A DNA stretch of 64,000 nucleotides from Candidatus Moraniibacteriota bacterium (GTDB lineage Bacteria; Patescibacteriota; Minisyncoccia; Moranbacterales; GCA-2747515), in assembly GCA_942490825.1 (NCBI GenBank), contig CALNYG010000005.1, positions 262,240 through 326,239 of the forward strand, read 5' to 3'. Both the position numbers and the translations under genes were made by a program. Positions 781 to 60,909 of the stretch are shown in pieces. Under the pieces are notes generated by a model that saw only the letters and a program-made list of their open reading frames with translations, was not told where the DNA came from and did no database searches. Numbering within the stretch: position 1 is the stretch's first letter; each line of letters begins with the position of its first letter.

Positions 781-822
781 AAAAAGCCCGTGCGGCGAGC
801 CTGCCTATCGGCAGACAGGCAC
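781..822 (+). repeat. Box-A repeat, filled form
   Basis: AAAAAGCCCGTGCGGCGAGC-CTGCCTATCGGCAGACAGGC-AC. Begins 6 nt after the stop of the 302..775 ORF and ends 65 nt upstream of tig. Confidence 0.9.
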
Positions 823-2233: not shown

Positions 2234-2398
2234 TGTCATTCTGAACCTGCCTTTGTCGGCAGACAGGCGTAATAATTTTTATGAAATAAAAATTATGTAG
2301 TGAAGAATCCCAGTAAGTTTTTCTGATGATTTAGTTTTAAAGTTTCGTGATTTTCTGTGGGGGATTCTTCATTTCGCTACGCTATATTCAGAATGACA
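2234..2398 (+). repeat. nested-palindrome element (NPE) with GC mini-palindrome insertion
   Basis: TGTCATTCTGAAC | CTGCCTTTGTCGGCAGACAGGC | hairpin ATAATTTTTAT-GAA-ATAAAAATTAT | GTAGTGAAGAATCCC | spacer | GGGGGATTCTTCAT | ... TTCAGAATGACA. Confidence 0.9.
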
Positions 2399-3117: not shown

Positions 3118-3188
3118 TTTTCAATCCCCGATAGGACTCGAGGACATGCTTACGAATTTTCAACCTGCCTGCCGGACAGGCGGGTTTC

Positions 3189-3218: not shown

Positions 3219-3233
3219 GTTTAGTGAATTTTT

Positions 3234-3253
3234 GTGCTCGCCGCACGGGCTTT
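3234..3253 (-). repeat. Box-A repeat, empty form, inverted orientation
   Basis: GTGCTCGCCGCACGGGCTTT, directly after the clpP terminator hairpin. Confidence 0.9.
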
Positions 3254-3338: not shown

Positions 3339-3755
3339 ATGTTTGATTTTCTTAAAAAGAAAGTTTTGGCGAAGTGTTGTAATGTTCAAATTCCGATTAA
3401 AGATAAGATTTCTGCTTTTGGAAAAGAGATTACAACCGAGGTTCCCGTAAAAGACGGAAAAACATTGTATTGTCATAAATGCCTAGGAAAGATGGTGATA
3501 AAGTGTGCATGGTGTGGAGGAGTTATTTTTATTGGTGATCCGATAACTCTGTATTCGCCAGTCAAAAAGGATTTTGAAATTCCAGAACATGCCGTTATTT
3601 ATAAGGAAAAACCTTTGCAACTTATTGGTTGTTTGCGATGGGATTGTGCGGAAACTGGCGCTGATCGGATGGGGTTTTGGCTTCCGCCAGGTAAAGTGGA
3701 AAGAGTTAGGGACCCTTCAACAAAGTGTGTCCATCGCCCATTTAACCTTTCTTAA
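3339..3755 (+). CDS. Cys-rich hypothetical protein (putative zinc-ribbon)
   Basis: GGAGG 6 nt upstream of the ATG at 3339. CxxC-type pairs (CHKC...CAWCGG, CLRWDC). The last ~46 nt of the ORF lie inside the left inverted repeat of the IS256-family element. Confidence 0.55.
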   Translation: MFDFLKKKVLAKCCNVQIPIKDKISAFGKEITTEVPVKDGKTLYCHKCLGKMVIKCAWCGGVIFIGDPITLYSPVKKDFEIPEHAVIYKEKPLQLIGCLRWDCAETGADRMGFWLPPGKVERVRDPSTKCVHRPFNLS

Positions 3756-4996
3756 TTTTATTAAAATATTTAAAATTAGAAACAGGATATTTCATATAAT
3801 TTTTTTCTTCAAACTCCTTAATAACCATAAATACATAGTCCAATAATCTTTCGGGAGATTCAAATGATAATTTATTCTTTGTAGTTTTTCTAATTTGCCT
3901 ATTCAAATTTTCAATTGAATTAGTTGTATAAATCATTCTTCTTACTCGAGGATTGAATTTAATATATGTAAAATAATATTCAATTTCTGTAAAATGATTT
4001 TTAAAATTTGGATATTTTGTTTTCCATTTTTCTAAAAAATTATTTACTTTTTTCAAGGCTTTTTCAATTGTATCATTTTCTTCAAAATTATTAAATATTT
4101 CTTTTAAATCTTCTCCTATTTCTTTTTTATCTTTCGGTCTTGTTTTGTTTAAAATATTTCTTTGTTTATGAACTACGCACTTTTGAAATTCTCCTTGGGG
4201 ATATATTTCTAAAAATACATTTTCTAAATTTTTTAATCCATCAGCTACAAATAAATCTATTTGTTGAACACCTCTTTTTTCTTTTAATTCTTGCAATAAT
4301 TCTTTCCAAAATTCTGCTGATTCGGTTGGATTTTGACTTAAACAAAGCAATTCTCGTCTATTATCTTCTCTTACTCCAAAAGCAATAAATACACCTTCCT
4401 TAGCGTATTCATCACCTCTTCGCACAGTAATGAAAATTACATCTCCATAAACAACTTTGTAATGTTTTTCTAATTTGGAATTTTGCCAAGCTATTCTAAA
4501 TTTATTAAATACTTTTGCTAAATTAGATATCTTAGCAGGAGACATGTTTTCTTCAAAAATTTCATTTAAAAATTCATTAATGTCATTGGAAGTCATTCCT
4601 TTTTTATATAAAGATAAAGCTATTTCATCTACTTTTTCTCTGTTAATTTTAAAAGTTCTAGTGTTGCTGGAGAGAATAATCCTGTTCTAGTTCTTGGAAT
4701 ATGAACAAGTAATGAGTTTTTTGATAATGAATTCATAGCTCTTCCGTATGATCCATTTCCTTTATCTTTTTTAGTTTTATTAATATCTTCTAAATACTCA
4801 TCTCTTTCTATTAGCATTAAGGTTTCTATTGTTTTTCCTATGAATTTATCCATGGATAAATCATCTAGATTTTCTCTTAAGTTTTTTATGTTTTTTTCTA
4901 ATAATTCTTCGGTTCTATTTTTCTTGTCTGACATGATTTTATTATTAAATTTATTAATTTAATTTTACTATCAGACACAATTTTGTGAAGGGTCTC
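3709..4996 (-). mobile_element. IS256-family insertion sequence (~1.29 kb)
   Basis: Imperfect terminal inverted repeats: GGGACCCTTCAACAAAGTGTGTCC (3709..) versus the reverse complement of the right end, GAGACCCTTCACAAAATTGTGTCT (..4996), 18 of 23 matching. Encloses a Mutator/IS256-type transposase. No target duplication was recognised. Confidence 0.8.
3742..4934 (-). pseudogene. IS256-family (Mutator-type) transposase, split by one frameshift
   Basis: ORFs 4629..4934 (GNGSYGRAMNS...IPRTRTGLFSP) and 3742..4596 (YKKGMT upstream in frame, VVYGDVIFITVRR, LFVADGLKNL, QKCVVHKQRN) are collinear with IS256 transposases. They join if the A5 run (plus-strand T5, 4633-4637) were A6. Confidence 0.85.
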
Positions 4997-7860: not shown

Positions 7861-7900
7861 CAGAAAGGCTAATTTAGATAGTTTATTATCAGAAAATTAT

Positions 7901-8227
7901 ATGACTTTAAAAGAAGTAAAAGATAATATTATAAAATTTATCTCTGGATCAGATTTAGTTCCTAGAGAGCTTTTAGAAGTACATGATTATTTTCGCTTAA
8001 ATAAGGCAATAAATTTTGAATTTCATGAGGAGAATGGAGGAATAATGGCAGTTAGTAAAGACTTTAGACATGGTTCGATTGTAACATTTGGAAAAAATTA
8101 TAAAGATTTAGATGAAAAAATAAAAGATGCAATTCTTACATCTTTTGATTTACCATCTGCTTATAAAAATGAAGCGAGTATTTATAATAAGGATATTAAT
8201 AGTAAAAAAGAATATGTCCTTGCTTAG
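7901..8227 (+). CDS. HicB-like (UPF0150) antitoxin-type protein
   Basis: ATG at 7901 lies downstream of tRNA-Gly; the track start 7820 is inside the tRNA. The segment FHEENGGIMAVSKDFRHGSIVTFGKNYKDLDEKIKDAILTSF resembles the HicB N-terminal fold. The 3' end overlaps the next ORF by 14 nt. Confidence 0.5.
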   Translation: MTLKEVKDNIIKFISGSDLVPRELLEVHDYFRLNKAINFEFHEENGGIMAVSKDFRHGSIVTFGKNYKDLDEKIKDAILTSFDLPSAYKNEASIYNKDINSKKEYVLA

Positions 8228-8464
8228 TGACTTACCTGGATTTATAAAAAAGAAAAATTTTATAAAAGCATTAAAAAAAATGATTTTATAATAAATAAAA
8301 AAGGTGGAAAAGGCGGGCATTTTAAAGCCACTTTCAAAAATGAAAAGTCAATTACATTACCATCATCTGGTTTTGAAAAGTATCAACTAAAATATATTAT
8401 AAAGCAGATTGAATTAATTACTAATGGAGCGGTAACTTGGAATGACATAAAAAATAAATTATAA
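8214..8464 (+). pseudogene. HicA-like mRNA-interferase toxin, frameshifted in an A8 run
   Basis: Frame 1 gives MSLLSDLPGFIKKKNFIKALKK. The -1 frame continues NDFIINKKGGKGGHFKATFKNEKSITLPSSG..YQLKYIIKQIEL, matching the HicA pattern (K/G-S-H...V-P). The frames join if A8 (8273-8280) were A9. Each piece is below the 60-aa cut-off of the track. Confidence 0.45.
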
Positions 8465-13980: not shown

Positions 13981-14259
13981 TGTCATGCTGAAAGATATAA
14001 GTTGTTCAAGGGGGTAGTGATTGAATACAAACCTGCCTGTTCGGCAGACAGGTTAATCTATTCAGTATCTGCATCTTAAGTTTAAAGAAAATTGAAGGTA
14101 TATCTTTCTTCCGAGATTCTGAATAAATATTTTTTTAAATATTTTTCAGGATTACATGGGGAGAAGTTTGAATGTAATTTAGAATTTTTGTGATTCTCTG
14201 TAGGAGATTCTTCACTTCATAAATTTATCTGCGATAAATTTATTACGTTCAGAATGACA
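13981..14259 (+). repeat. nested-palindrome element (NPE), extended copy
   Basis: Left end TGTCATGCTGAA, right end GTTCAGAATGACA. Carries a GC mini-palindrome (14032-14052), a CTGAATAAAT...ATTTTTCAG hairpin, the inner arm GAGATTCTTCAC and hairpin B ATAAATTTATC-TGC-GATAAATTTAT. Confidence 0.8.
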
Positions 14260-15246: not shown

Positions 15247-15577
15247 TGTCATTGCGAGGAATGACCGTAGGGAATGACGTGGTAATCCCAGTAAGTTTTC
15301 CTGATATTTTAATTTTAAAGTTTTTAGTTTTGAAACGTTTCGGAATCAGTGGTCTTCGACACACTAATTCCGGCAGTAAAAAGCTTTTAGTTTAGAAACG
15401 TTTCGGAATCAGTGGTCTTTGACACACTAATTCCGGTAGTAAAATTAATCTATCTGGTATCCAGAAAATATTAGAAAATAACTAAGGTTAAAAGTTTGGC
15501 TATAGTCTTAAAATTTCCTAGATTCCGGATAAATTTTGTATTTTTTTACGAAAAACAAAAAATTTTCCGGAATGACA
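15247..15577 (+). repeat. composite NPE-type repeat block
   Basis: Starts with the mini-hairpin TGTCATTGCGAGGAATGAC, then the NPE spacer (AATCCCAGTAAGTTTTCCTGATATTTTAATTTTAAAG), two tandem Hp-C units, and ends TTCCGGAATGACA. Confidence 0.75.
15322..15444 (+). repeat. Hp-C hairpin module, 63-bp tandem duplication (2 units)
   Basis: Unit TTTTAGTTTNGAAACGTTT-CGGAATCAGTG-GTCTTYGACA-CACTAATTCCG. Hairpins at 15341-15372 and 15404-15435. Confidence 0.9.
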
Positions 15578-16301: not shown

Positions 16302-16616
16302 TGTCATTCCGGAAATTTTTTAAGTTTTTTGTAAAAAAAATTTAAAAAATTATCCGGAATCTAGGAATCTTTAAGATTAATGATAAACTTTAAATTTTAT
16401 GTTTGTCTGAGATCATCCAATCAAGTTGAGTGCAGGCTCTGAATAAATTATTTGATTTTTCTGCAAAAAACAAAATAATTTTTCAGGATGACATGACATG
16501 AAAAGAGGTTTGAATGTAATTTTAAAGTTTTGTGATTTTCTGTGGGGGATTTCTGTCTGCCCTGTCTGCCGACAGGCAGGCGACAGGCAGGCGACAAAGG
16601 CAGGTTCAGAATGACA
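16302..16616 (+). repeat. composite NPE-type repeat block
   Basis: Begins TGTCATTCCGGAA, an inverted copy of 15508-15577. Contains the CTGAATAAATTA...AAAATAATTTTTCAG hairpin, the NPE spacer, a duplicated GC mini-palindrome cluster (16553-16604), and ends GTTCAGAATGACA. Confidence 0.8.
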
Positions 16617-18666: not shown

Positions 18667-18829
18667 TGTCATTCTGAACGAAGTAATATTTTCGTTAGAA
18701 AATTTTACGTAGTGAAGAATCCCCTTAGACTTTTCTGATAATTCAATTTTTAAAGTTTTGTGACTTTCTGTGGGGGATTCTTCACTGCATAAATTTATCT
18801 GCGATAAATTTATTACGTTCAGAATGACA
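18667..18829 (+). repeat. nested-palindrome element (NPE), canonical copy
   Basis: TGTCATTCTGAAC; hairpin A GTAATATTTTC-GTTA-GAAAATTTTAC; GTAGTGAAGAATCCCC; ~50-nt spacer; GGGGGATTCTTCACT; hairpin B; CGTTCAGAATGACA. Sits between sufB and sufD. Confidence 0.9.
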
Positions 18830-23451: not shown

Positions 23452-23475
23452 AACAAGGGGTCATGACCCCTTGTT
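23452..23475. repeat. Pal-E perfect 24-nt palindrome
   Basis: AACAAGGGGTCATGACCCCTTGTT, 7 nt after the ddl stop. Related copies at 26483..26506 and 31208..31231. Confidence 0.9.
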
Positions 23476-23525: not shown

Positions 23526-23569
23526 GTGCCTGTCTGCCGAATAGGTAGGCTCGCCGCACGGGCTTTTTT
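23526..23569 (-). repeat. Box-A repeat, filled form, inverted orientation
   Basis: Reverse complement reads AAAAAAGCCCGTGCGGCGAGC-CTACCTATTCGGCAGACAGGC-AC. Confidence 0.9.
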
Positions 23570-23594: not shown

Positions 23595-23818
23595 TGTCAT
23601 TCTGAACCTGCCTTTGTCGCCTGCCTGTCGGCAGACAGGGCAGACAGGCGGATTTATTTTTTTGTTAAAAAAATAAAGAAGTGAAGCCTGCCTGTCGGCA
23701 GACAGGAATCCCTCACAAAGCATCACAAAACTTTAAAATTAAAATAGCAGAAAAATTTACAAGGATTCTTCACTACATAATTTTTCATTACATGAAAAAT
23801 TATTTCGTTCAGAATGAC
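23595..23818 (-). repeat. nested-palindrome element (NPE), inverted copy with three GC mini-palindrome insertions
   Basis: Ends TGTCATTCTGAAC / GTTCAGAATGAC. The spacer is the reverse complement of the canonical spacer. GC palindromes at ~23606-23650 (two, overlapping) and 23687-23706, the latter splitting the inner arm GTGAAG|AATCCC. Confidence 0.85.
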
Positions 23819-23838
23819 GGGTTGTTCTGCCTGTTTTT

Positions 23839-26156: not shown

Positions 26157-26233
26157 AGTTTTAAATTAATTTTTAATCCCCAATGAGGCTCGAGGACATG
26201 TTTACGAATTTTCAATTTTCAAATAGTGCAACC

Positions 26234-26395
26234 TGTCATTCTGAACGAAGTAGAATTTTCGTTAGAAAATTTTACGCAGTGAAGAATCCCAGTAAGTTTT
26301 TTTGATATTTTAATTTTAAAGTTTTGTGACTTTCTGTGGGGGATTCTTCACTTCATAAATTTATCTGCGATAAATTTATTACGTTCAGAATGACA
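26234..26395 (+). repeat. nested-palindrome element (NPE), canonical copy
   Basis: TGTCATTCTGAAC; GTAGAATTTTC-GTTA-GAAAATTTTAC; CAGTGAAGAATCCC; spacer; GGGGGATTCTTCACT; ATAAATTTATC-TGC-GATAAATTTAT; CGTTCAGAATGACA. Preceded by TTTTCAATTTTCAAATAGTGCAAC as in copies 2234 and 18667. Confidence 0.9.
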
Positions 26396-26482: not shown

Positions 26483-26506
26483 AACAATGGGTCATGACCT
26501 ATTGTT
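26483..26506. repeat. Pal-E palindrome variant
   Basis: AACAATGGGTCATGACCTATTGTT, 15 nt upstream of the xseA ATG. A symmetric T/A change relative to copy 23452 keeps the pairing. Confidence 0.85.
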
Positions 26507-28138: not shown

Positions 28139-28210
28139 ACAGACAATTAGAATTGTAAAATTGTTTATTTTTTGTGTTTCGAAATTTAGGTGGTTTTTAA
28201 AAATTGTTTA

Positions 28211-28256
28211 TTTAGAAACGTTTCGGAATGAGTGGTCTTCGACACACTCATTCCGG
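28211..28256 (+). repeat. Hp-C hairpin module, single copy
   Basis: TTTAGAAACGTTT-CGGAATGAGTG-GTCTTCGACA-CACTCATTCCG. A G/C pair replaces the C.A mismatch of the 15341 copy. Confidence 0.9.
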
Positions 28257-28295
28257 TTAGTTGATAATTATAATTAAAAAGTTAAATTTAAAAAT

Positions 28296-28569: not shown

Positions 28570-28627
28570 AGTGTGGATTAAATTAAAAGTTTTGTGTACC
28601 TAGTTTCCCGCCTACGCGGGAATGACA
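28570..28627 (+). repeat. right-half NPE variant (CCCGCCTACGCGGG type)
   Basis: AAAAGTTTTGTGTACCTAGTTTCCCGC-CTAC-GCGGGAATGACAT, matching 215-266 of this window (ATCCCCGC-CTAC-GCGGGGATGACAT) with a compensatory C-G to T-A change in the stem. Confidence 0.75.
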
Positions 28628-28825: not shown

Positions 28826-28868
28826 AAAAAGCTCGTGCGGCGAGCCTGCCTGTTCGGCAGACAGGCAC
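28826..28868 (+). repeat. Box-A repeat, filled form
   Basis: AAAAAGCTCGTGCGGCGAGC-CTGCCTGTTCGGCAGACAGGC-AC, 75 nt upstream of the oxidoreductase alpha gene. Confidence 0.9.
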
Positions 28869-31207: not shown

Positions 31208-31231
31208 AACAAGGGGTCATGACCACTTGTT
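31208..31231. repeat. Pal-E palindrome variant
   Basis: AACAAGGGGTCATGACCACTTGTT, 14 nt upstream of the ATG at 31245. Confidence 0.85.
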
Positions 31232-39878: not shown

Positions 39879-40039
39879 TATCATTCTGAACGAAATAATT
39901 TTTATGAAATAAAAATTATGTAGTGAAGAATCTTAATGAGTTTTTCTGATATTATAACTTGAAAGCTTTGATATTTTTTTAGGAGATTCTTCACTTCTTT
40001 ATTTTTTTTAACAAAAAAATAAATCCGTTCAGAATGACA
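39879..40039 (+). repeat. nested-palindrome element (NPE), canonical architecture with alternative hairpins
   Basis: TATCATTCTGAAC; ATAATTTTTAT-GAA-ATAAAAATTAT; GTAGTGAAGAATCT; spacer; GAGATTCTTCACT; TTTATTTTTTTT-AAC-AAAAAAATAAA; CGTTCAGAATGACA. Confidence 0.9.
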
Positions 40040-40970: not shown

Positions 40971-41015
40971 AAAAGCCCGTGCGGCGAGCCTGCCTGTTGC
41001 ATGGCAGACAGGCAC
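40971..41015 (+). repeat. Box-A repeat, filled form (enlarged loop)
   Basis: AAAAGCCCGTGCGGCGAGC-CTGCCTGTTGCATGGCAGACAGGC-AC, preceded by the near-palindrome AGGTTCAAGATCTTAAACCT. 88 nt upstream of 41103, in a divergent intergenic region. Confidence 0.9.
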
Positions 41016-43596: not shown

Positions 43597-43614
43597 GGCC
43601 CGTGCGGCGAGCAC
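43597..43614 (+). repeat. Box-A repeat, empty form
   Basis: TATGTATCATGGCCCGTGCGGCGAGCAC, 78 nt upstream of the glutaredoxin-like gene. Confidence 0.9.
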
Positions 43615-47954: not shown

Positions 47955-48058
47955 TTTTAAGACTTTTGTGATTTTCTGTGGGGGACTCCTGTCTGCCGAC
48001 AGGCAGGCTTCACTGCGTAATTTTGTCTGACGACAAAATTACTTCGTTCAGAATGACA
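47955..48058 (+). repeat. right-half NPE with GC mini-palindrome inserted in the inner arm
   Basis: Spacer tail TTTTGTGATTTTCTGTGGGGGA | CTCCTGTCTGCCGACAGGCAGG | CTTCACT; hairpin B variant GTAATTTTGTC-TGAC-GACAAAATTAC; CGTTCAGAATGACA. Confidence 0.85.
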
Positions 48059-48159: not shown

Positions 48160-48201
48160 AAAAAGCCCGTGCGGCGAGCCTGCCTATCGGCAGACAGGCA
48201 C
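48160..48201 (+). repeat. Box-A repeat, filled form
   Basis: AAAAAGCCCGTGCGGCGAGC-CTGCCTATCGGCAGACAGGC-AC then TTTTTATTTTTT, 45 nt upstream of rpiB. Near-identical to the copy at 781..822. Confidence 0.9.
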
Positions 48202-48801: not shown

Positions 48802-48855
48802 GAGAAAATTGAGAAAATTGAGAAAATTGAGAAAATTGAGAAAATTGAGAAAATT
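48802..48855 (+). repeat. 9-bp tandem repeat (GAGAAAATT) x6
   Basis: Six perfect head-to-tail units, immediately followed by an Hp-C hairpin. Confidence 0.95.
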
Positions 48856-48865
48856 GGTAAAGTTG

Positions 48866-48897
48866 CGGAAGCAGTGGTCTTCGACACACTACTTCCG
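48866..48897 (+). repeat. Hp-C hairpin, single copy
   Basis: CGGAAGCAGTG-GTCTTCGACA-CACTACTTCCG. T-A changed to G-C relative to the 15341 copy (compensatory). Confidence 0.9.
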
Positions 48898-49110
48898 GCT
48901 CAGAGATGCTTGGTTGAATAATAATACCATTTCTAAGTAATTGTTCCTCAGTGATTATTTTTAATAATTAACATTTGCGATGCTTTGTCACAAATAAATA
49001 TTTAAGAATGGGAAAAGGTTAACTGAAAACGGCATAATAAAGAAAAGATTGTAAGGGTATTAAAGGAAATCGGAAAAGTCTCTAACTCTGATATCAAATA
49101 ATTATAATTT

Positions 49111-51425: not shown

Positions 51426-51464
51426 AGCCCGTGCGGCGAGCCTGCCTGTTCGGCAGACAGGCAC
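51426..51464 (+). repeat. Box-A repeat, filled form
   Basis: TATGTATCATAGCCCGTGCGGCGAGC-CTGCCTGTTCGGCAGACAGGC-AC, 87 nt upstream of gdhA. Confidence 0.9.
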
Positions 51465-52846: not shown

Positions 52847-52902
52847 TTTTGGATAATTTCGAGAACGCTGGTATACTAATTAATATACAATTAATTTTTT
52901 TT

Positions 52903-54054
52903 ATGGCTAATTTGAAAGAAAATTTGAAAGAAAGTAGAGCTCAAGGAATTTTATTTGATTTTTTAGAAGACAAAAATGAAATTTGTGATTTAAAAATAAA
53001 AAAAATTAATAAGCCTAATTTTAAATTTAAAAAGGAAAAAGATAATTATTTTCAATTACAAAATCGTAGGTATTTAGGTAATAAATATAAATTACTTGAA
53101 TTTATTGAAGCTATAGTTTCTAAAAAATGTGAGAATGTTAATTCTTTTTGTGATATTTTTTCTGGAACAGGTGTTGTGGGAGAAAGATTTAATAAAAATG
53201 GCACAAAGGTGATTTTGAATGATATTTTGAATGCAAATTATATTTGTTTAAAAACTTTTTTAGAAACAAAAAAAGATATTGAAAAAAAAGTCATTGAGAA
53301 AATAAACTATTTAAATGAATTGAAAATTAATAATGAAAATTATTTCTCCAAAAATTTTGGAGGAAGTTATTTTTCGGTGGAAAATGCAAAAAAAATTGGT
53401 ACAATCCGTGAAAAAATAGAAAAGATTTCAGAAAATGAAAATGAAAAAAGAATTTTACTTTGCTCTTTACTTTATGCAACTGATAAAGTTGCAAACACCG
53501 TTGGTCATTATGATGCTTTTAGAAAAAAACTTGATTCTATTGAGCCTTTAAAATTGTTGGTGCCTAAGATTAATTATTCTAGTAACTTAAATAATAGAGT
53601 ATATAAAGAGGACGCAAATTATTTGATTCGTAAAATATCTTGTGATGTTTTATATATAGATCCTCCTTATAATTCAAGACAATATTCAGATGCTTATCAT
53701 TTACTTGAAAATTTATCAGAATGGAAAAAGCCTAGTGTTGAAGGCGTTGCAAAAAAGATGAATCGTTCACATATAAAAAGTGACTATTGTTTAAAAACAG
53801 CTACTCAAGCATTTGAAGATTTAATTAAGAATGCAAATTGTAAACATATATTATTTTCTTATAATAATACTGGAGATTCTAAACATGGTCGCTCTAATGC
53901 TAGAATAAAAGATGATGATATTATTAGAATTCTTAAGAAGAAAGGAAAAATTGAAATTTTTGAACAAAAATACAGAGCATTTACAACTGGGAAAAGTGCT
54001 AAAGATGGAAATTCTGAAAGAATATTTTATTGTAAAGTAACTAAAAAATCATGA
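52903..54054 (+). CDS. type II DNA adenine methyltransferase (D12-class / COG3392-like), M1 of an M-R-M locus
   Basis: NRRYLGNKYKLL N-terminal motif, FCDIFSGTGVVG (SAM binding), catalytic DPPYNSRQY. ATG at 52903. The stop overlaps the R gene start (ATGA). Confidence 0.85.
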   Translation: MANLKENLKESRAQGILFDFLEDKNEICDLKIKKINKPNFKFKKEKDNYFQLQNRRYLGNKYKLLEFIEAIVSKKCENVNSFCDIFSGTGVVGERFNKNGTKVILNDILNANYICLKTFLETKKDIEKKVIEKINYLNELKINNENYFSKNFGGSYFSVENAKKIGTIREKIEKISENENEKRILLCSLLYATDKVANTVGHYDAFRKKLDSIEPLKLLVPKINYSSNLNNRVYKEDANYLIRKISCDVLYIDPPYNSRQYSDAYHLLENLSEWKKPSVEGVAKKMNRSHIKSDYCLKTATQAFEDLIKNANCKHILFSYNNTGDSKHGRSNARIKDDDIIRILKKKGKIEIFEQKYRAFTTGKSAKDGNSERIFYCKVTKKS

Positions 54055-55880
54055 AAAAACCTTGGTCAATAACAACAACTCTAAGAAATCCTGAAAGATT
54101 GAGAGATTTTTTGGTTGTTTTACAACAATTAGAAGGTCAAGAATGGAATTTGGAGAATCAAAGAAAATATCAAATTCTTCTTATTAAAGAAAGGATTTAT
54201 GGATATGGAAGTGCACAATTTTATAGTGGATTAAGTCAACAACAAATATCTTTAATTGATAATCAGGCAAGAGAAATTTCTTTTGAAAAAGCAGAAGAAA
54301 TTTTTAATGCTAAAAATTATGAAGATCCTGCAATGAGAGGGAGACAATCAATGAATCCTCTTAAAAAGATTGGACTTGCTATTATAAAAAGGGAAAAAAT
54401 ATTAATCACTAGCTTGGGAAAATTATTCTTGCAGGAACATTTTGATTTAGGAGAGATGTTTTTTAGGAGTTTTATAAAATGGCAATTACCAAATCTAGAT
54501 TCAACTGATTATAAATTAGAGAATGGATATAATATAAAACCATTTGTTGGAGTTTTACATTTGATAAACCAAGTAAATAAAAAATCTTTGAAGATTGGAG
54601 AAAAAGCAAAAGGAATTAGCAAACAAGAATTTTCTTTATTTTGTCCAAGTCTTATAAATTTTGGAGATATAGAAAATTATGCTGATAAAATTTTAAAATT
54701 AAGAGAAAAGCAAAAGGGTAAAAATAAACAAGAGCAGAAAAAAGTTTTTGATGATTATAAAAATAGATTTGTTCAAGAATTTTTAGAAACTAGCGATAAA
54801 GAAGAAATTGATAAATTTTTAAAGAATCTTAAAGATTATGGGGATAATGCAATAAGATACTTTCGTTTAACTCGGTTTTTATATATTCGAGGTAATGGAT
54901 TTTATGTTGATTTAGAGCCAAGAAGACAAATTGAAATTAAAAATTTATTAAATTTTGATAATGCAAGTTCCAGAGGCTTTGAAAACAAAGAACAATATTT
55001 AGACTATATAGCAGATATTTCAGAGCCAAGACTTCCATGGGAGTCAAAAGAAGAGTATAAAAAGATTCTTTCAAAACTTATTGAAGATATTAAAACATAC
55101 GAAGAAAAATTAAGTATTAAAACAAAAGAAATTGTAGATTATCAAAGTTTTAGTGAAGAAGAATTGAGAAAATATATTTCGGACTTAAGACAATACAGAA
55201 GAGAATTACAAAATGAAGAAAATCATCAAAAATCACAAGAAATAGAACAAATACGTGATTATATAGAAAATCTAAATAGATTATCTCGTGTTGATAGAAC
55301 TTTAGAAAATAGACCTATTCTTTTAGAAAAATTTTCATCACTAGGATTAAATGCTTTAAATGATGCTTTAAAAATAAAACCAAATTATCCTGTTGGTGAT
55401 GATAATGAGCCTACATTTACAGCTCCTGCAAATACTCCTGACATTGAATGTTATTATGAAAATTTCAATACTGTATGTGAGGTAACAATGCTTAACGGAA
55501 GAGATCAATGGTATAATGAGGGGCAACCAGTAATGAGACATTTAAGAGATTTTGAAAATAAAAACGATGATAAAAAATCATATTGTTTATTTATTGCTCC
55601 AAAAATTCATAGAGATACTCTAAATACTTTTTGGACATCAGTAAAATATGAATATGAGGGAGCAAGACAATGTATAATTCCTTTTACAATCAATGATTTT
55701 GTAAGTCTTTTAAAAATTCTTGTTGAAATTAAAAAAGAAGGAAAATTTTTAACACATGGGGAAATTGCTCGCTTGTATGATGAAATTATCAATACATCAA
55801 ATGATTTTTCTGATTCAAGTGAATGGTTAAATGAAATTCCAAATACAATTAATTCTTGGCAAAAAAGTATCAATTTTTAA
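54051..55880 (+). CDS. AlwI-family type IIS restriction (or nicking) endonuclease
   Basis: 609 aa. Recalled Nt.BspD6I/N.BstNBI/MlyI/PleI sequences are collinear: WSITTTLRNPER start, NAIRYFRLTRFLYIRGNGFYVDLEP, and catalytic region PDIECYYENFNTVCEVT...QPVMRHL...YCLFIAPKI. Comparison is from memory, not a search. Confidence 0.75.
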   Translation: MKKPWSITTTLRNPERLRDFLVVLQQLEGQEWNLENQRKYQILLIKERIYGYGSAQFYSGLSQQQISLIDNQAREISFEKAEEIFNAKNYEDPAMRGRQSMNPLKKIGLAIIKREKILITSLGKLFLQEHFDLGEMFFRSFIKWQLPNLDSTDYKLENGYNIKPFVGVLHLINQVNKKSLKIGEKAKGISKQEFSLFCPSLINFGDIENYADKILKLREKQKGKNKQEQKKVFDDYKNRFVQEFLETSDKEEIDKFLKNLKDYGDNAIRYFRLTRFLYIRGNGFYVDLEPRRQIEIKNLLNFDNASSRGFENKEQYLDYIADISEPRLPWESKEEYKKILSKLIEDIKTYEEKLSIKTKEIVDYQSFSEEELRKYISDLRQYRRELQNEENHQKSQEIEQIRDYIENLNRLSRVDRTLENRPILLEKFSSLGLNALNDALKIKPNYPVGDDNEPTFTAPANTPDIECYYENFNTVCEVTMLNGRDQWYNEGQPVMRHLRDFENKNDDKKSYCLFIAPKIHRDTLNTFWTSVKYEYEGARQCIIPFTINDFVSLLKILVEIKKEGKFLTHGEIARLYDEIINTSNDFSDSSEWLNEIPNTINSWQKSINF

Positions 55881-55895
55881 TTCCTATAAAAAATT

Positions 55896-56663
55896 ATGAA
55901 AAAAAATATTATCTACAACGGAGATTGTACAGAAGTACTAGCCAAGAAAATTCAAGAAAATTCAATTGATCTCATTTTTGCTGATCCTCCTTATAATCTT
56001 TCTGGAAATGGCTTGCATTGGAAAGGAAGCAAAACAGGTGGAGACTGGTTTATGGTAAATGAAGAATGGGACAAAATGACAGCTCCTGAATATATGCAAT
56101 TTACAAGAAAATGGATTGCAGGTTGTCATAAAGCACTAAAAGATAACGGATCAATCTATATCGCTTGTAGTTATCACAATATTGGAGAAGTGATGATTGT
56201 TTTAAAACAACTCGATTATAAAATTAACAATATCATTACTTGGTACAAAACAAATGCAATGCCAAATATGACAAGAAGAGTTTTTACTCATGCAACTGAA
56301 TTTGTAATTTGGGCAGTTAAAGGGAAAGGCTGGACTTTTAATTATGAAAAAATCAAAGAAATTAACCCAGAAAAGCAAAAAGACGGAAGTTTAAAACAAA
56401 TGAGAGATTTTTGGGAAATGCCTTTAGTTCAAGGAAAAGAAAGATTAAGAAGAAAGGATGGAAAGGCTTTACATCCGACACAAAAACCAGAAGAAATGTT
56501 AAAAAGAATTATTTTAGCAAGTTCAAATGAGAAAGATGTTGTTTTAGATCCTTTTATGGGAAGTGGGACAACTGCTTTTATTGCTAAAAAATATAAACGT
56601 AATTTTATAGGAATCGAAAGTGATAAAAAATACGTAGAAGCTGCAAGAAAAAGATTGAAATAG
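55896..56663 (+). CDS. beta-class N6A/N4C DNA methyltransferase (CcrM/M.HinfI-like), M2
   Basis: IFADPPYNL near the N-terminus, IITWYKTNAMPN, HPTQKPEEMLKRII, DPFMGSGTTA. Confidence 0.9.
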   Translation: MKKNIIYNGDCTEVLAKKIQENSIDLIFADPPYNLSGNGLHWKGSKTGGDWFMVNEEWDKMTAPEYMQFTRKWIAGCHKALKDNGSIYIACSYHNIGEVMIVLKQLDYKINNIITWYKTNAMPNMTRRVFTHATEFVIWAVKGKGWTFNYEKIKEINPEKQKDGSLKQMRDFWEMPLVQGKERLRRKDGKALHPTQKPEEMLKRIILASSNEKDVVLDPFMGSGTTAFIAKKYKRNFIGIESDKKYVEAARKRLK

Positions 56664-60700: not shown

Positions 60701-60754
60701 GGTTTGTAATTTTAAACGTTTCTAAATTGGTTATAAAACCAGTTCCTGTGAGAT

Positions 60755-60909
60755 GTTATTCTGAACGAAGTATTTTTATTGTTAAATAAAAATATGCAGT
60801 GAAGAATCTTAGTAAGTTTTTTTTGAACTTAAATTATTGAGATGTACTGCTTGAGATTCTTCGTTTCATAAAATTTTCTAACGAAAATTTTATTACACTC
60901 AGAATGACA
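60755..60909 (+). repeat. nested-palindrome element (NPE), canonical architecture, diverged ends
   Basis: TGTTATTCTGAAC; TATTTTTATT-GTTA-AATAAAAATA; CAGTGAAGAATCT; spacer; GAGATTCTTCGT; ATAAAATTTTC-TAAC-GAAAATTTTAT; ACTCAGAATGACA. Confidence 0.85.

Follow-up and report, generated by a model that had tools for sequence, protein, structure and literature searches.

The 64,000-nucleotide stretch of a Candidatus Moraniibacteriota genome analyzed here (contig CALNYG010000005.1, positions 262,240 to 326,239; hereafter "the window") raises the question of how a GC-rich hairpin of only 20 to 24 nucleotides (nt) came to interrupt one repeat after another in DNA of 31% GC. An earlier note on this sequence had taken the coexistence of filled and empty sites as the sign of a mobile or copy-pasted element. 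Comparison with related genomes makes the lineage-specific, precise insertion of a copy-pasted module very likely, and the best overall reading of all observations, which we hold with less assurance but still consider probable, is that of an ultra-small, non-autonomous hairpin insertion module. A clean insertion of 20 nt without target-site duplication lies below the size of MITEs (miniature inverted-repeat transposable elements) and of the doublets of repetitive extragenic palindromes (REPs) called REPINs, and would thus represent one of the smallest mobile DNA modules.

A GC-rich hairpin inside two kinds of repeats

The 20-nt core unit of the hairpin is CCTGCCTGTCGGCAGACAGG, with loop variants reaching 24 nt. 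Its core GGCAGACAGG occurs 13 times in the window, 10 times on the plus strand and 3 times on the minus strand, and a relaxed 16-mer search (up to 3 mismatches) gave 17 strand-matches where 0.02 were expected. We count 12 complete copies of the form CCTGCC-loop-GGCAGACAGG, with loops TGTC, TGTTC, TATC, TATTC, TTTGTC, or TGTTGCAT, plus split outer copies and one variant, so that the motif is real and all positions and loop variants reported for it before were recovered. Its fold is not that of a simple palindrome: the plus strand folds as a 5' CCTG tail followed by a 6-bp stem, and the complement as an 8-bp stem including one G·T pair.

Although coding sequence makes up 83% of the window, all 12 complete copies are intergenic, and every window copy lies within one of two types of module. 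Box-A (GTGCGGCGAGC) is present in 14 copies, with 1.08 expected, and 6 of these are filled at exactly the same point between GAG and CAC (790, 23559 on the minus strand, 28835, 40979, 48169, and 51431), while the remaining 8 read uninterrupted GAGCAC, in agreement with the earlier count. The second host is a class of nested palindromic elements (NPEs) of ~160-225 nt with the layout TGTCATTCTGAAC, hairpin, GTGAAGAATCCC ... GGGATTCTTCAC, hairpin, GTTCAGAATGACA, of which nine were counted, some truncated or variant; five carry copies of the inserted hairpin. The copies are listed below, with a slash marking the point of insertion.

800-819, plus strand: hairpin with loop TATC, in Box-A 781-822 at GAG/CAC
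2246-2267, plus strand: hairpin with loop TTTGTC, at the outer site of NPE 2234-2398, TCTGAA/CG
3164-3184, no strand assigned: variant hairpin CCTGCCTGCCGGACAGGCGGG
14032-14052, plus strand: hairpin with loop TGTTC, in the loop of an NPE-variant module, ACAAA/TTAATC
16553-16604, minus strand: nested cluster L-L-[L-R]-R with the complete copy 16561-16580 inside two split outer copies, abutting a truncated NPE
23529-23549, minus strand: hairpin with CCTACC and loop TATTC, in a minus-strand Box-A
23607-23648, plus strand: self-nested pair at an NPE outer site, the outer copy (TTTGTC) being split at TGTCG/GCAG by the complete copy 23620-23639
23687-23706, plus strand: hairpin splitting the NPE inner arm, GTGAAG/AATCCC; this NPE has an empty right arm (23762-23773)
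28845-28865, plus strand: hairpin with loop TGTTC, in Box-A 28835
40989-41012, plus strand: hairpin with 8-nt loop TGTTGCAT, in the Box-A upstream of murL
47988-48007, minus strand: hairpin in an NPE right arm, with the same target and relative orientation as at 23687
48179-48198, plus strand: hairpin with loop TATC, in the Box-A upstream of rpiB
51441-51461, plus strand: hairpin with loop TGTTC, in Box-A 51431

Filled sites are empty in related genomes

For comparison we used syntenic contigs of relatives, i.e., L121/L122 (trigger factor 78% identical), L271 (MurL 88%), and L274 (MurL 84%). Three orthologous sites and one homologous module that are filled in the window are empty there, which bears out the proposal of a mobile or copy-pasted element. 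L271 and L274 both have an uninterrupted Box-A upstream of rpiB, and alignment with the window leaves a gap of exactly 20 nt between its GAG and CAC; L271 also has an empty Box-A upstream of murL, with a promoter-proximal flank downstream of the insertion point that is near-identical to that of the window. In the L271 ortholog of the NPE located between ahpC and rpiB, and in paralogs within the window, the right arm (47988) is empty, and the module filled at 14032 reads uninterrupted from ACAAA into TTAATC in L121. In addition, the Box-A filled at 23529 has an empty paralog (3229-3246) and an empty ortholog-type copy in L121, and the L271 spacer orthologous to the one containing Box-A 51431 is just 10 nt long and lacks the Box-A. 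The variant at 3164-3184, whose place is taken by ~40 nt of AT-rich spacer in the L121 ortholog, is not a clean insertion.

Throughout the 47.8 kb searched in these relatives, the hairpin is absent and 10 of 10 Box-A copies are empty, when ~9 hairpins would be expected at the density of the window. Together with the empty orthologous sites, this means that the hairpin invaded this Moranbacteria lineage after its split from relatives with which it shares 78-88% protein identity; precise loss in every relative would be far less parsimonious than gain after the split.

That filled and empty Box-A copies form two old, separately evolving families, or that the hairpin arose as an artefact of assembly or sequencing, is extremely improbable, and no observation speaks for either. 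Box-A subfamilies, as defined by their mutually unrelated upstream modules, all mix filled and empty copies: three are empty and one is filled with upstream cTTTcRGTTAAAAAGCCC, two are empty and one is filled with upstream TATGTATCATAGCCC, one is empty and one is filled with upstream TGTAGAGGTT...AAACCT, and the composite of Box-A plus terminator is filled at 23559 and empty at 3246. The empty orthologous sites likewise contradict two old families, and the motif is not equally common outside repeats in the window, where no copy lies outside one. With respect to an artefact, the 20-mer bears a partial resemblance to Nextera adapter ends. However, we rejected an adapter origin because the copies are mutated, context-specific, and present in long-read chromosomes and isolate genomes of many laboratories.

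The inserted unit and its junctions

The inserted unit is exactly CCTGCC...GACAGG, 20-24 nt long and without target duplication. Its junctions are ambiguous by 2 nt (GC) in Box-A and by 1 nt at NPE sites and in self-nesting. At 14032 (ACAAA/insert/TTAATC) there is no ambiguity at all and therefore no target duplication, so that a 2-nt GC junction duplication, as the earlier note had suggested, is not a general feature. A MITE derived from a DDE transposon, which by definition combines terminal inverted repeats with a target-site duplication, was rejected as an identity of the hairpin given the lack of duplication at the unambiguous junction and the ambiguity of no more than 2 nt elsewhere.

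Within each class of host module the hairpin points the same way, in 11 of 11 cases (6/6 in Box-A, 3/3 at TCTGAA/CG, and 2/2 at GTGAAG/AATCCC), with the three minus-strand copies following the orientation of their hosts. Copies are also nested in the loop of other copies at TGTCG/GCAG, once in 23607-23648 and twice in 16553-16604. Precise pasting, in fixed orientation and without target-site duplication, has therefore placed the hairpin in no fewer than five classes of unrelated sites in the window: Box-A, two sites in NPEs, the loop of a further module, and the loop of the hairpin itself. One NPE has a filled left arm and an empty right arm. Each site class still needs a founding insertion of its own.

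The same hairpin in other phyla and viral contigs

A scan of 596 Gb of genomes (one per species) with the pattern CCTGCCN{4,8}GGCAGACAGG, which has 16 fixed bases, returned at least 120 matches. Since ~1,400 chance matches are expected in 596 Gb, it is only the loop statistics and contexts that are informative and not the count. The content of the matches listed does not fit chance: 45 of the 76 with a four-nt loop have TGTC, compared with a chance expectation of 1 in 256, and the further loop variants TGTTC, TTTGTC, and TATC of the window recur. The carriers among these matches comprise cultured Flavobacteriia and Cytophagia, the cyanobacterium Sphaerospermopsis NIES-73, metagenome-assembled genomes (MAGs) of Saccharibacteria, Falkowbacteria, and Levybacteria, and others; isolates belong to Galbibacter, Winogradskyella, Flavobacterium, Gaetbulibacter, and Sphaerospermopsis, so that cultured carriers such as Galbibacter orientalis DSM 19592 and Flavobacterium undicola are at hand.

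The exact 20-mer is also found in viral contigs, with 30 copies on 23 stretches in IMG/VR where fewer than one would be expected. It is absent from 2.3 Gb of GenBank phages, from 7.3 Gb of plasmids (PLSDB), and from the literature searched, and all 120 matches listed by a metagenome scan with GTGCGGCGAGCCTRCC are chance matches in contigs rounding to 50-80% GC. Searches of the window against Rfam gave only tRNAs above the gathering score, and relaxed searches returned only generic hairpin matches far below threshold. When both positions of the C·A mismatch in the stem were varied, the mismatch version was found in 23 stretches, and of three better-pairing versions just one was found, in 4 stretches. 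The dominance of the mismatch version means that the specific sequence is conserved and not just the stem, and such identity with a conserved mismatch in several phyla and phage contigs implies recognition by a conserved, horizontally travelling protein.

Outside this genome, too, the insertions are clean. A G directly precedes the insert in 43 of 75 copies (57%), purines account for 81% at this position, and flanks with a perfect inverted repeat of at least 5 bp around the insertion point were seen at 15 of 83 sites compared with 14 of 498 controls. Copies recur 10-13 nt after the GTCA of palindromic units of the GTCAyyCyGAr type in Bacteroidota and Falkowbacteria, in parallel to the NPE outer site of the window, and a MAG of Actinomycetota (L011) shows self-nesting at the same TGTCG/GCAG point. 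The claim that copies always lie within repeats holds for all window copies but not elsewhere, where most of those among the matches listed are in unique DNA and one is within a phage gene; obligatory nesting in repeats is thus a trait of this genome and not of the element.

One could also envisage a process without any dedicated enzyme, in which a stalled replication strand switches templates by microhomology, copies a stable hairpin from base to base, and returns. This would fit most junctions, which are ambiguous by 1-2 nt (left G, right C), and the presence of a strong structure within 31% GC DNA. However, the boundaries are identical to the nucleotide in all contexts, the junction at 14032 has no microhomology whatsoever, and neither the conserved C·A mismatch nor the identity across phyla would be expected of a process that senses structure only, so that we regard template switching as quite unlikely.

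A termite-gut MAG and viral contigs (L119, L126, L128, and L142) contain dense mutual nests of related GC-rich hairpins, e.g., CCCGCCTGCCGGCGGGCAGG and CCTGCCTACCGGTAGGCAGG, whose sequences suggest a wider superfamily of CCyGCC...GGCrGG modules.

Insertion into a tail-tube gene

In L145, which belongs to a termite-gut Bacillota MAG, the 20-mer breaks a prophage tail-tube gene after codon 14. Deletion of exactly these 20 nt restores the open reading frame (ORF), whose N-terminus is then colinear with eight homologs. The identical 20-mer interrupts a paralog on L275 at the same nucleotide despite ~25% divergence of the flanks, and a third paralog on L277 is empty. Identity at 20 of 20 nt has a probability of ~0.003 against such divergence, which argues for recent, site-preferring insertion. 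We rejected translational bypass of the inserted hairpin since there is no matching pair of take-off and landing codons.

The annotation of these genes hides the insertion. For the L275 gene (1501-2031), the database protein P0242 uses an alternative TTG start and reads through the hairpin (MGYDRPVCRQAG...), which is thereby annotated as coding, and the annotated L145 protein (7869-8439) begins at an internal methionine. Peptides derived from the hairpin such as PVCRQAG likely contaminate protein databases. More broadly, the annotation of MAGs is affected because the hairpin interrupts both genes and tRNA-like sequences and gives rise to spurious ORFs (with peptides like RPVCRQAG).

Small GIY-YIG nucleases as candidate partners

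In hairpin-bearing loci of other organisms, six of seven small PF01541 GIY-YIG ORFs have a canonical hairpin no more than 306 nt away, a proximity with an estimated P of ~2e-4 when the tandem pair is counted once and uniform placement within the locus is assumed. Five of these ORFs are free-standing and encode 80-92 amino acids (aa), and those of L062 and L026 are domains of similar length in longer open frames. The hairpin flanks small GIY-YIG genes in L107, L027, L062, L106, and L130: Galbibacter orientalis has two tandem units with the hairpin 21 nt ahead of the start codon, and single cases were found in a Bacteroidetes MAG, inside hsdS of a Thermodesulfobacteriota MAG, in a Saccharibacteria MAG, and in a viral contig. 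The nearest solved structures to these hairpin-adjacent proteins are of the UPF0213 type. Clustering of ORFs of at least 120 aa near hairpins revealed no recurrent neighbor, with a cut-off above the size of the small GIY-YIG genes of 80-92 aa.

From these other genomes, a small GIY-YIG nuclease emerges as the best candidate partner of the hairpin, and the genes that it flanks provide a concrete handle on the protein recognizing it. No RAYT or IS200-type Y1 transposase is present among the 56 window ORFs, and tblastn with an IS200 TnpA query gave no match in ~1.2 Mb of hairpin-bearing loci. Neither the window nor the loci of its relatives contain a hairpin-adjacent small GIY-YIG gene, and a related-locus search with the GIY-YIG alignment recovered only the query itself and two unrelated high-GC genes.

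Several of the GIY-YIG cassettes lie in tRNA neighborhoods beside truncated tRNA-like fragments that carry the hairpin in the D-loop, T-loop, or variable region. Upstream of an intact tRNA-Leu, Galbibacter orientalis has a tandem duplication of a unit composed of a tRNA-Leu 5' fragment, the hairpin, and the GIY-YIG gene. The GIY-YIG and tRNA-fragment loci are the following.

L107, 6380-7220
L027, 7300-7800
L130, 1-420
L001, 2000-2080
L021, 900-970

Comparison with known repeat systems

The closest described phenomena appear to be the small dispersed repeats (SDRs) of Nostocaceae and the repeats associated with Ssn nucleases, and what surprises in this comparison is the exact identity of the hairpin across phyla together with its demonstrably clean insertions. 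According to the papers citing their description, SDRs are 21-27 nt long and inserted precisely within other repeats, with SDR5 between nt 3 and 4 of HIP1, and comprise eight families reported only in Nostocaceae, with the enzyme unknown (PMC5861425, PMC4390886, and PMC3116915). The hairpin resembles them, as far as these papers describe their features, in its length of 20-24 nt, its exact junctions, and its nesting in itself. It differs by spanning members of the candidate phyla radiation (CPR), Bacteroidota, a cyanobacterium, and phage contigs, a comparison made at the level of descriptions. In size, the hairpin is matched only by these little-studied cyanobacterial elements, whose mechanism has been open since 2008. 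The original description is reportedly that of Elhai et al. 2008 in Genome Res 18:1484.

Hairpin repeats of the NTS/SRM type (CGTCATTCCCGCG...CGGGAATC) are bound and cut as single-stranded DNA, on one strand only, by cognate small single-domain GIY-YIG nucleases called Ssn, whose genes are typically bordered by their own repeats; both repeats and nucleases are widespread among phyla, and the question of how the repeats multiply was left open (Chenal et al. 2025, PMC11893778). Like these oriented repeats of 20-50 nt, the hairpin occurs in many phyla and flanks small GIY-YIG genes, and it often lies 10-13 nt past the GTCA of SRM-type units. In contrast to SRM sequences, which vary between taxa, the hairpin is identical across phyla, and the known activity of Ssn is the cutting of DNA and not its insertion. 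The window itself contains two exact SRM matches, both on the minus strand (237-264 and 28600-28627; TGTCATCCCCGCGTAGGCGGGGATCCAG and TGTCATTCCCGCGTAGGCGGGAAACTAG), where 0.02 would be expected, as well as an SRM-like unit with an expanded loop at 131-170 on the plus strand, which forms an inverted pair at the window start. By analogy, the presence of Neisseria-type NTS repeats in a CPR genome suggests that an Ssn homolog may be encoded elsewhere in this genome.

REPs and REPINs, which are mobilized by RAYT (Y1/HUH) transposases whose genes the repeats often flank, share with the hairpin the format of a GC-rich extragenic hairpin of ~20 nt with a functionally important mismatch that is non-autonomous and presumed to move as single-stranded DNA. 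By definition, REPs carry a GTAG (or CGTC) tag at the end of the palindrome (PMC3733652). The hairpin has neither tag, starts with CCTG and ends with CAGG, and its flanks are variable except for the G at -1. Moreover, a given REP is confined to one species or genus, and the proposed mobile unit is the doublet (REPIN) and not a single hairpin. In fungi, mitochondrial GC clusters, ultra-short invasive elements, and "byp" elements are, like the hairpin studied here, short and GC-rich and invade AT-rich genomes, with nested as well as genic insertions. These GC-cluster-type elements are organellar and eukaryotic, have other sequences, and in some cases come with short target duplications.

Proposed routes of spread within and between genomes

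How might such a unit move? In the mechanism that we propose, what moves would be a hairpin of single-stranded DNA on which an enzyme encoded elsewhere and specific for both structure and sequence acts in trans. The best candidate for this enzyme would be a small Ssn/UPF0213-type nuclease with a single GIY-YIG domain, and a Y1/HUH enzyme an alternative, with host ligase or replication completing the insertion. After a repeat has become occupied, further spread would proceed mostly via duplication of the host repeat and short-tract gene conversion between paralogs. The far-reaching version, in which a 20-nt hairpin crosses phyla (CPR, Bacteroidota, Cyanobacteria, and their phages) through insertion as single-stranded DNA by trans-acting GIY-YIG nucleases of the Ssn/UPF0213 type, is tentative, and a role of these nucleases as the mobilizing activity is similarly a possibility that we would not bet on. 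If true, the hairpin would be the smallest known transposable unit and the first evidence of how Ssn-type repeats multiply, possibly accounting for the Ssn-associated repeat expansion.

A number of observations weigh against this proposal. Neither GIY-YIG nor Y1/HUH, reverse transcriptase, or integrase genes are present in the 64-kb window, and the GIY-YIG association consists of five independent loci that all belong to other organisms. The GIY-YIG proteins flanking the hairpin are mutually only 27-53% identical although the hairpin is identical, and with or without Box-A flanks the hairpin does not match the SRM pattern HGTCWYN(0-2)YYVSBRHN(0-5)WNVSBRGN(0-2)RNCYNB. Ssn proteins are known as nucleases only and are not known to join or transpose DNA. 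The contrasts between filled and empty sites are between species with 78-88% protein identity, and no polymorphism within a population was seen. Finally, the loops sort by site class: TGTC never occurs in Box-A, loops at the NPE outer site are invariably TTTGTC, and TGTC is the loop of every nested copy and of every copy at the NPE inner site. This clustering fits homology-driven copying better than free transposition within this genome, and we take it as evidence that part and probably much of the spread within the genome results from hitch-hiking with the host repeat or short-tract gene conversion and not from fresh transposition.

Could such copying explain everything, with one or a few ancient insertions multiplied by host-repeat duplication and gene conversion of a hairpin that is itself immobile? 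Besides the site-class specificity of loops, including the TTTGTC common to all three copies at NPE outer sites, this view gains from the constant orientation relative to the host and the confinement of window copies to repeats. However, the at least five unrelated site classes require separate founders, and orthologous Box-A copies that were already there and empty were filled in situ, with just ~17 and 10 nt of flanking homology common to Box-A copies. The view is further at odds with identical 20-mers in unrelated contexts across phyla and with the same 20-mer in two tail-tube paralogs with flanks diverged by ~25%. We therefore consider copying by homology alone unlikely and prefer an insertion module that, once established in a repeat, also travels with it.

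Host modules and possible functions

Alternatively, the hairpin might be a functional module that is kept for strengthening terminators or stabilizing transcripts and recurs by selection. The predicted folding energy of an empty Box-A is -5.7 kcal/mol (z -0.3), and a filled Box-A forms a stem of -13 to -16 kcal/mol directly before a T-run; several copies outside the window cap the apex of terminator-like stems as well. A terminator-strengthening role in Box-A is plausible on these predictions. However, copies are also found within NPE arms, each other, tRNA fragments, and coding sequence, the conserved version is the less stable one with the mismatch, and selection leaves the arrival of an identical 20-mer unexplained. 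Selection as the sole explanation is thus about as improbable as template switching, and function would be compatible with the mobility of an insertion module.

Box-A itself is probably a functional site, for protein binding or termination, and not a mere repeat, since species that share 78-88% protein identity keep its core AAAGCCCGTGCGGCGAGCAC in orthologous places whereas the flanks drift (e.g., 9088, 26449, and 43602; L121, L271, and L274), and since the Box-A of murL, in the intergenic region of a divergent gene pair, lies ~25 nt upstream of a promoter with -35 and extended -10 elements. The NPEs, which are also found in the relatives at syntenic and other sites, have ends that resemble SRMs with expanded loops, and from their sequence they look like head-to-head SRM-type units in a REPIN-like arrangement. 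The empty Box-A copies and the NPEs of the window are as follows.

43602-43612, plus strand: empty Box-A core, with the orthologous L271 site empty too
3236 (minus strand), 9088, 14340, 16688, 18878, 26449, and 31159: starts of the other empty Box-A cores
2234-2398: NPE
13981-14259: NPE
16481-16616: NPE
18667-18829: NPE
23595-23819: NPE
26234-26395: NPE
39879-40039: NPE
47956-48058: NPE
60754-60909: NPE

Other features of the window

Homologs of its trigger factor and MurL assign the window to Candidatus Moranbacteria, a lineage of Patescibacteria/CPR, and the window includes a tRNA cluster. The only transposase of the window is an IS256-family (Transposase_mut) pseudogene at 3742-4934 on the minus strand that is split in two ORFs, and the whole element is missing from the orthologous spacer between clpP and iPGM in L121. 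Its ends were considered as a source of the hairpin and rejected as unrelated. An AlwI-type restriction endonuclease together with the D12-class and the N6/N4 DNA methyltransferase that flank it occupies 52849-56663, and the GC skew, which is strongly positive until ~56 kb, flattens just after this block.

Three further repeats were observed. A module of ~45 nt, CAATCCCCGATAGGACTCGAGGACATGCTTACGAATTTTCAA (3120-3163), directly follows clpP and is ~95% conserved in L121 (12597-12640) though non-coding, and part of it recurs at 26181-26215 upstream of NPE 26234. A 63-nt repeat family with the hairpin CGGAATCAGTG-GTCTTCGAC-CACTAATTCCG has four copies, two of them in tandem (15317-15442) and the others at 28200-28262 and 48842-48904. 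The perfect or near-perfect palindrome AACAAGGGGTCATGACCCCTTGTT lies beside Box-A copies at 23454-23473, 26485-26504, and 31210-31229 and is also found in L121 at ~13140.

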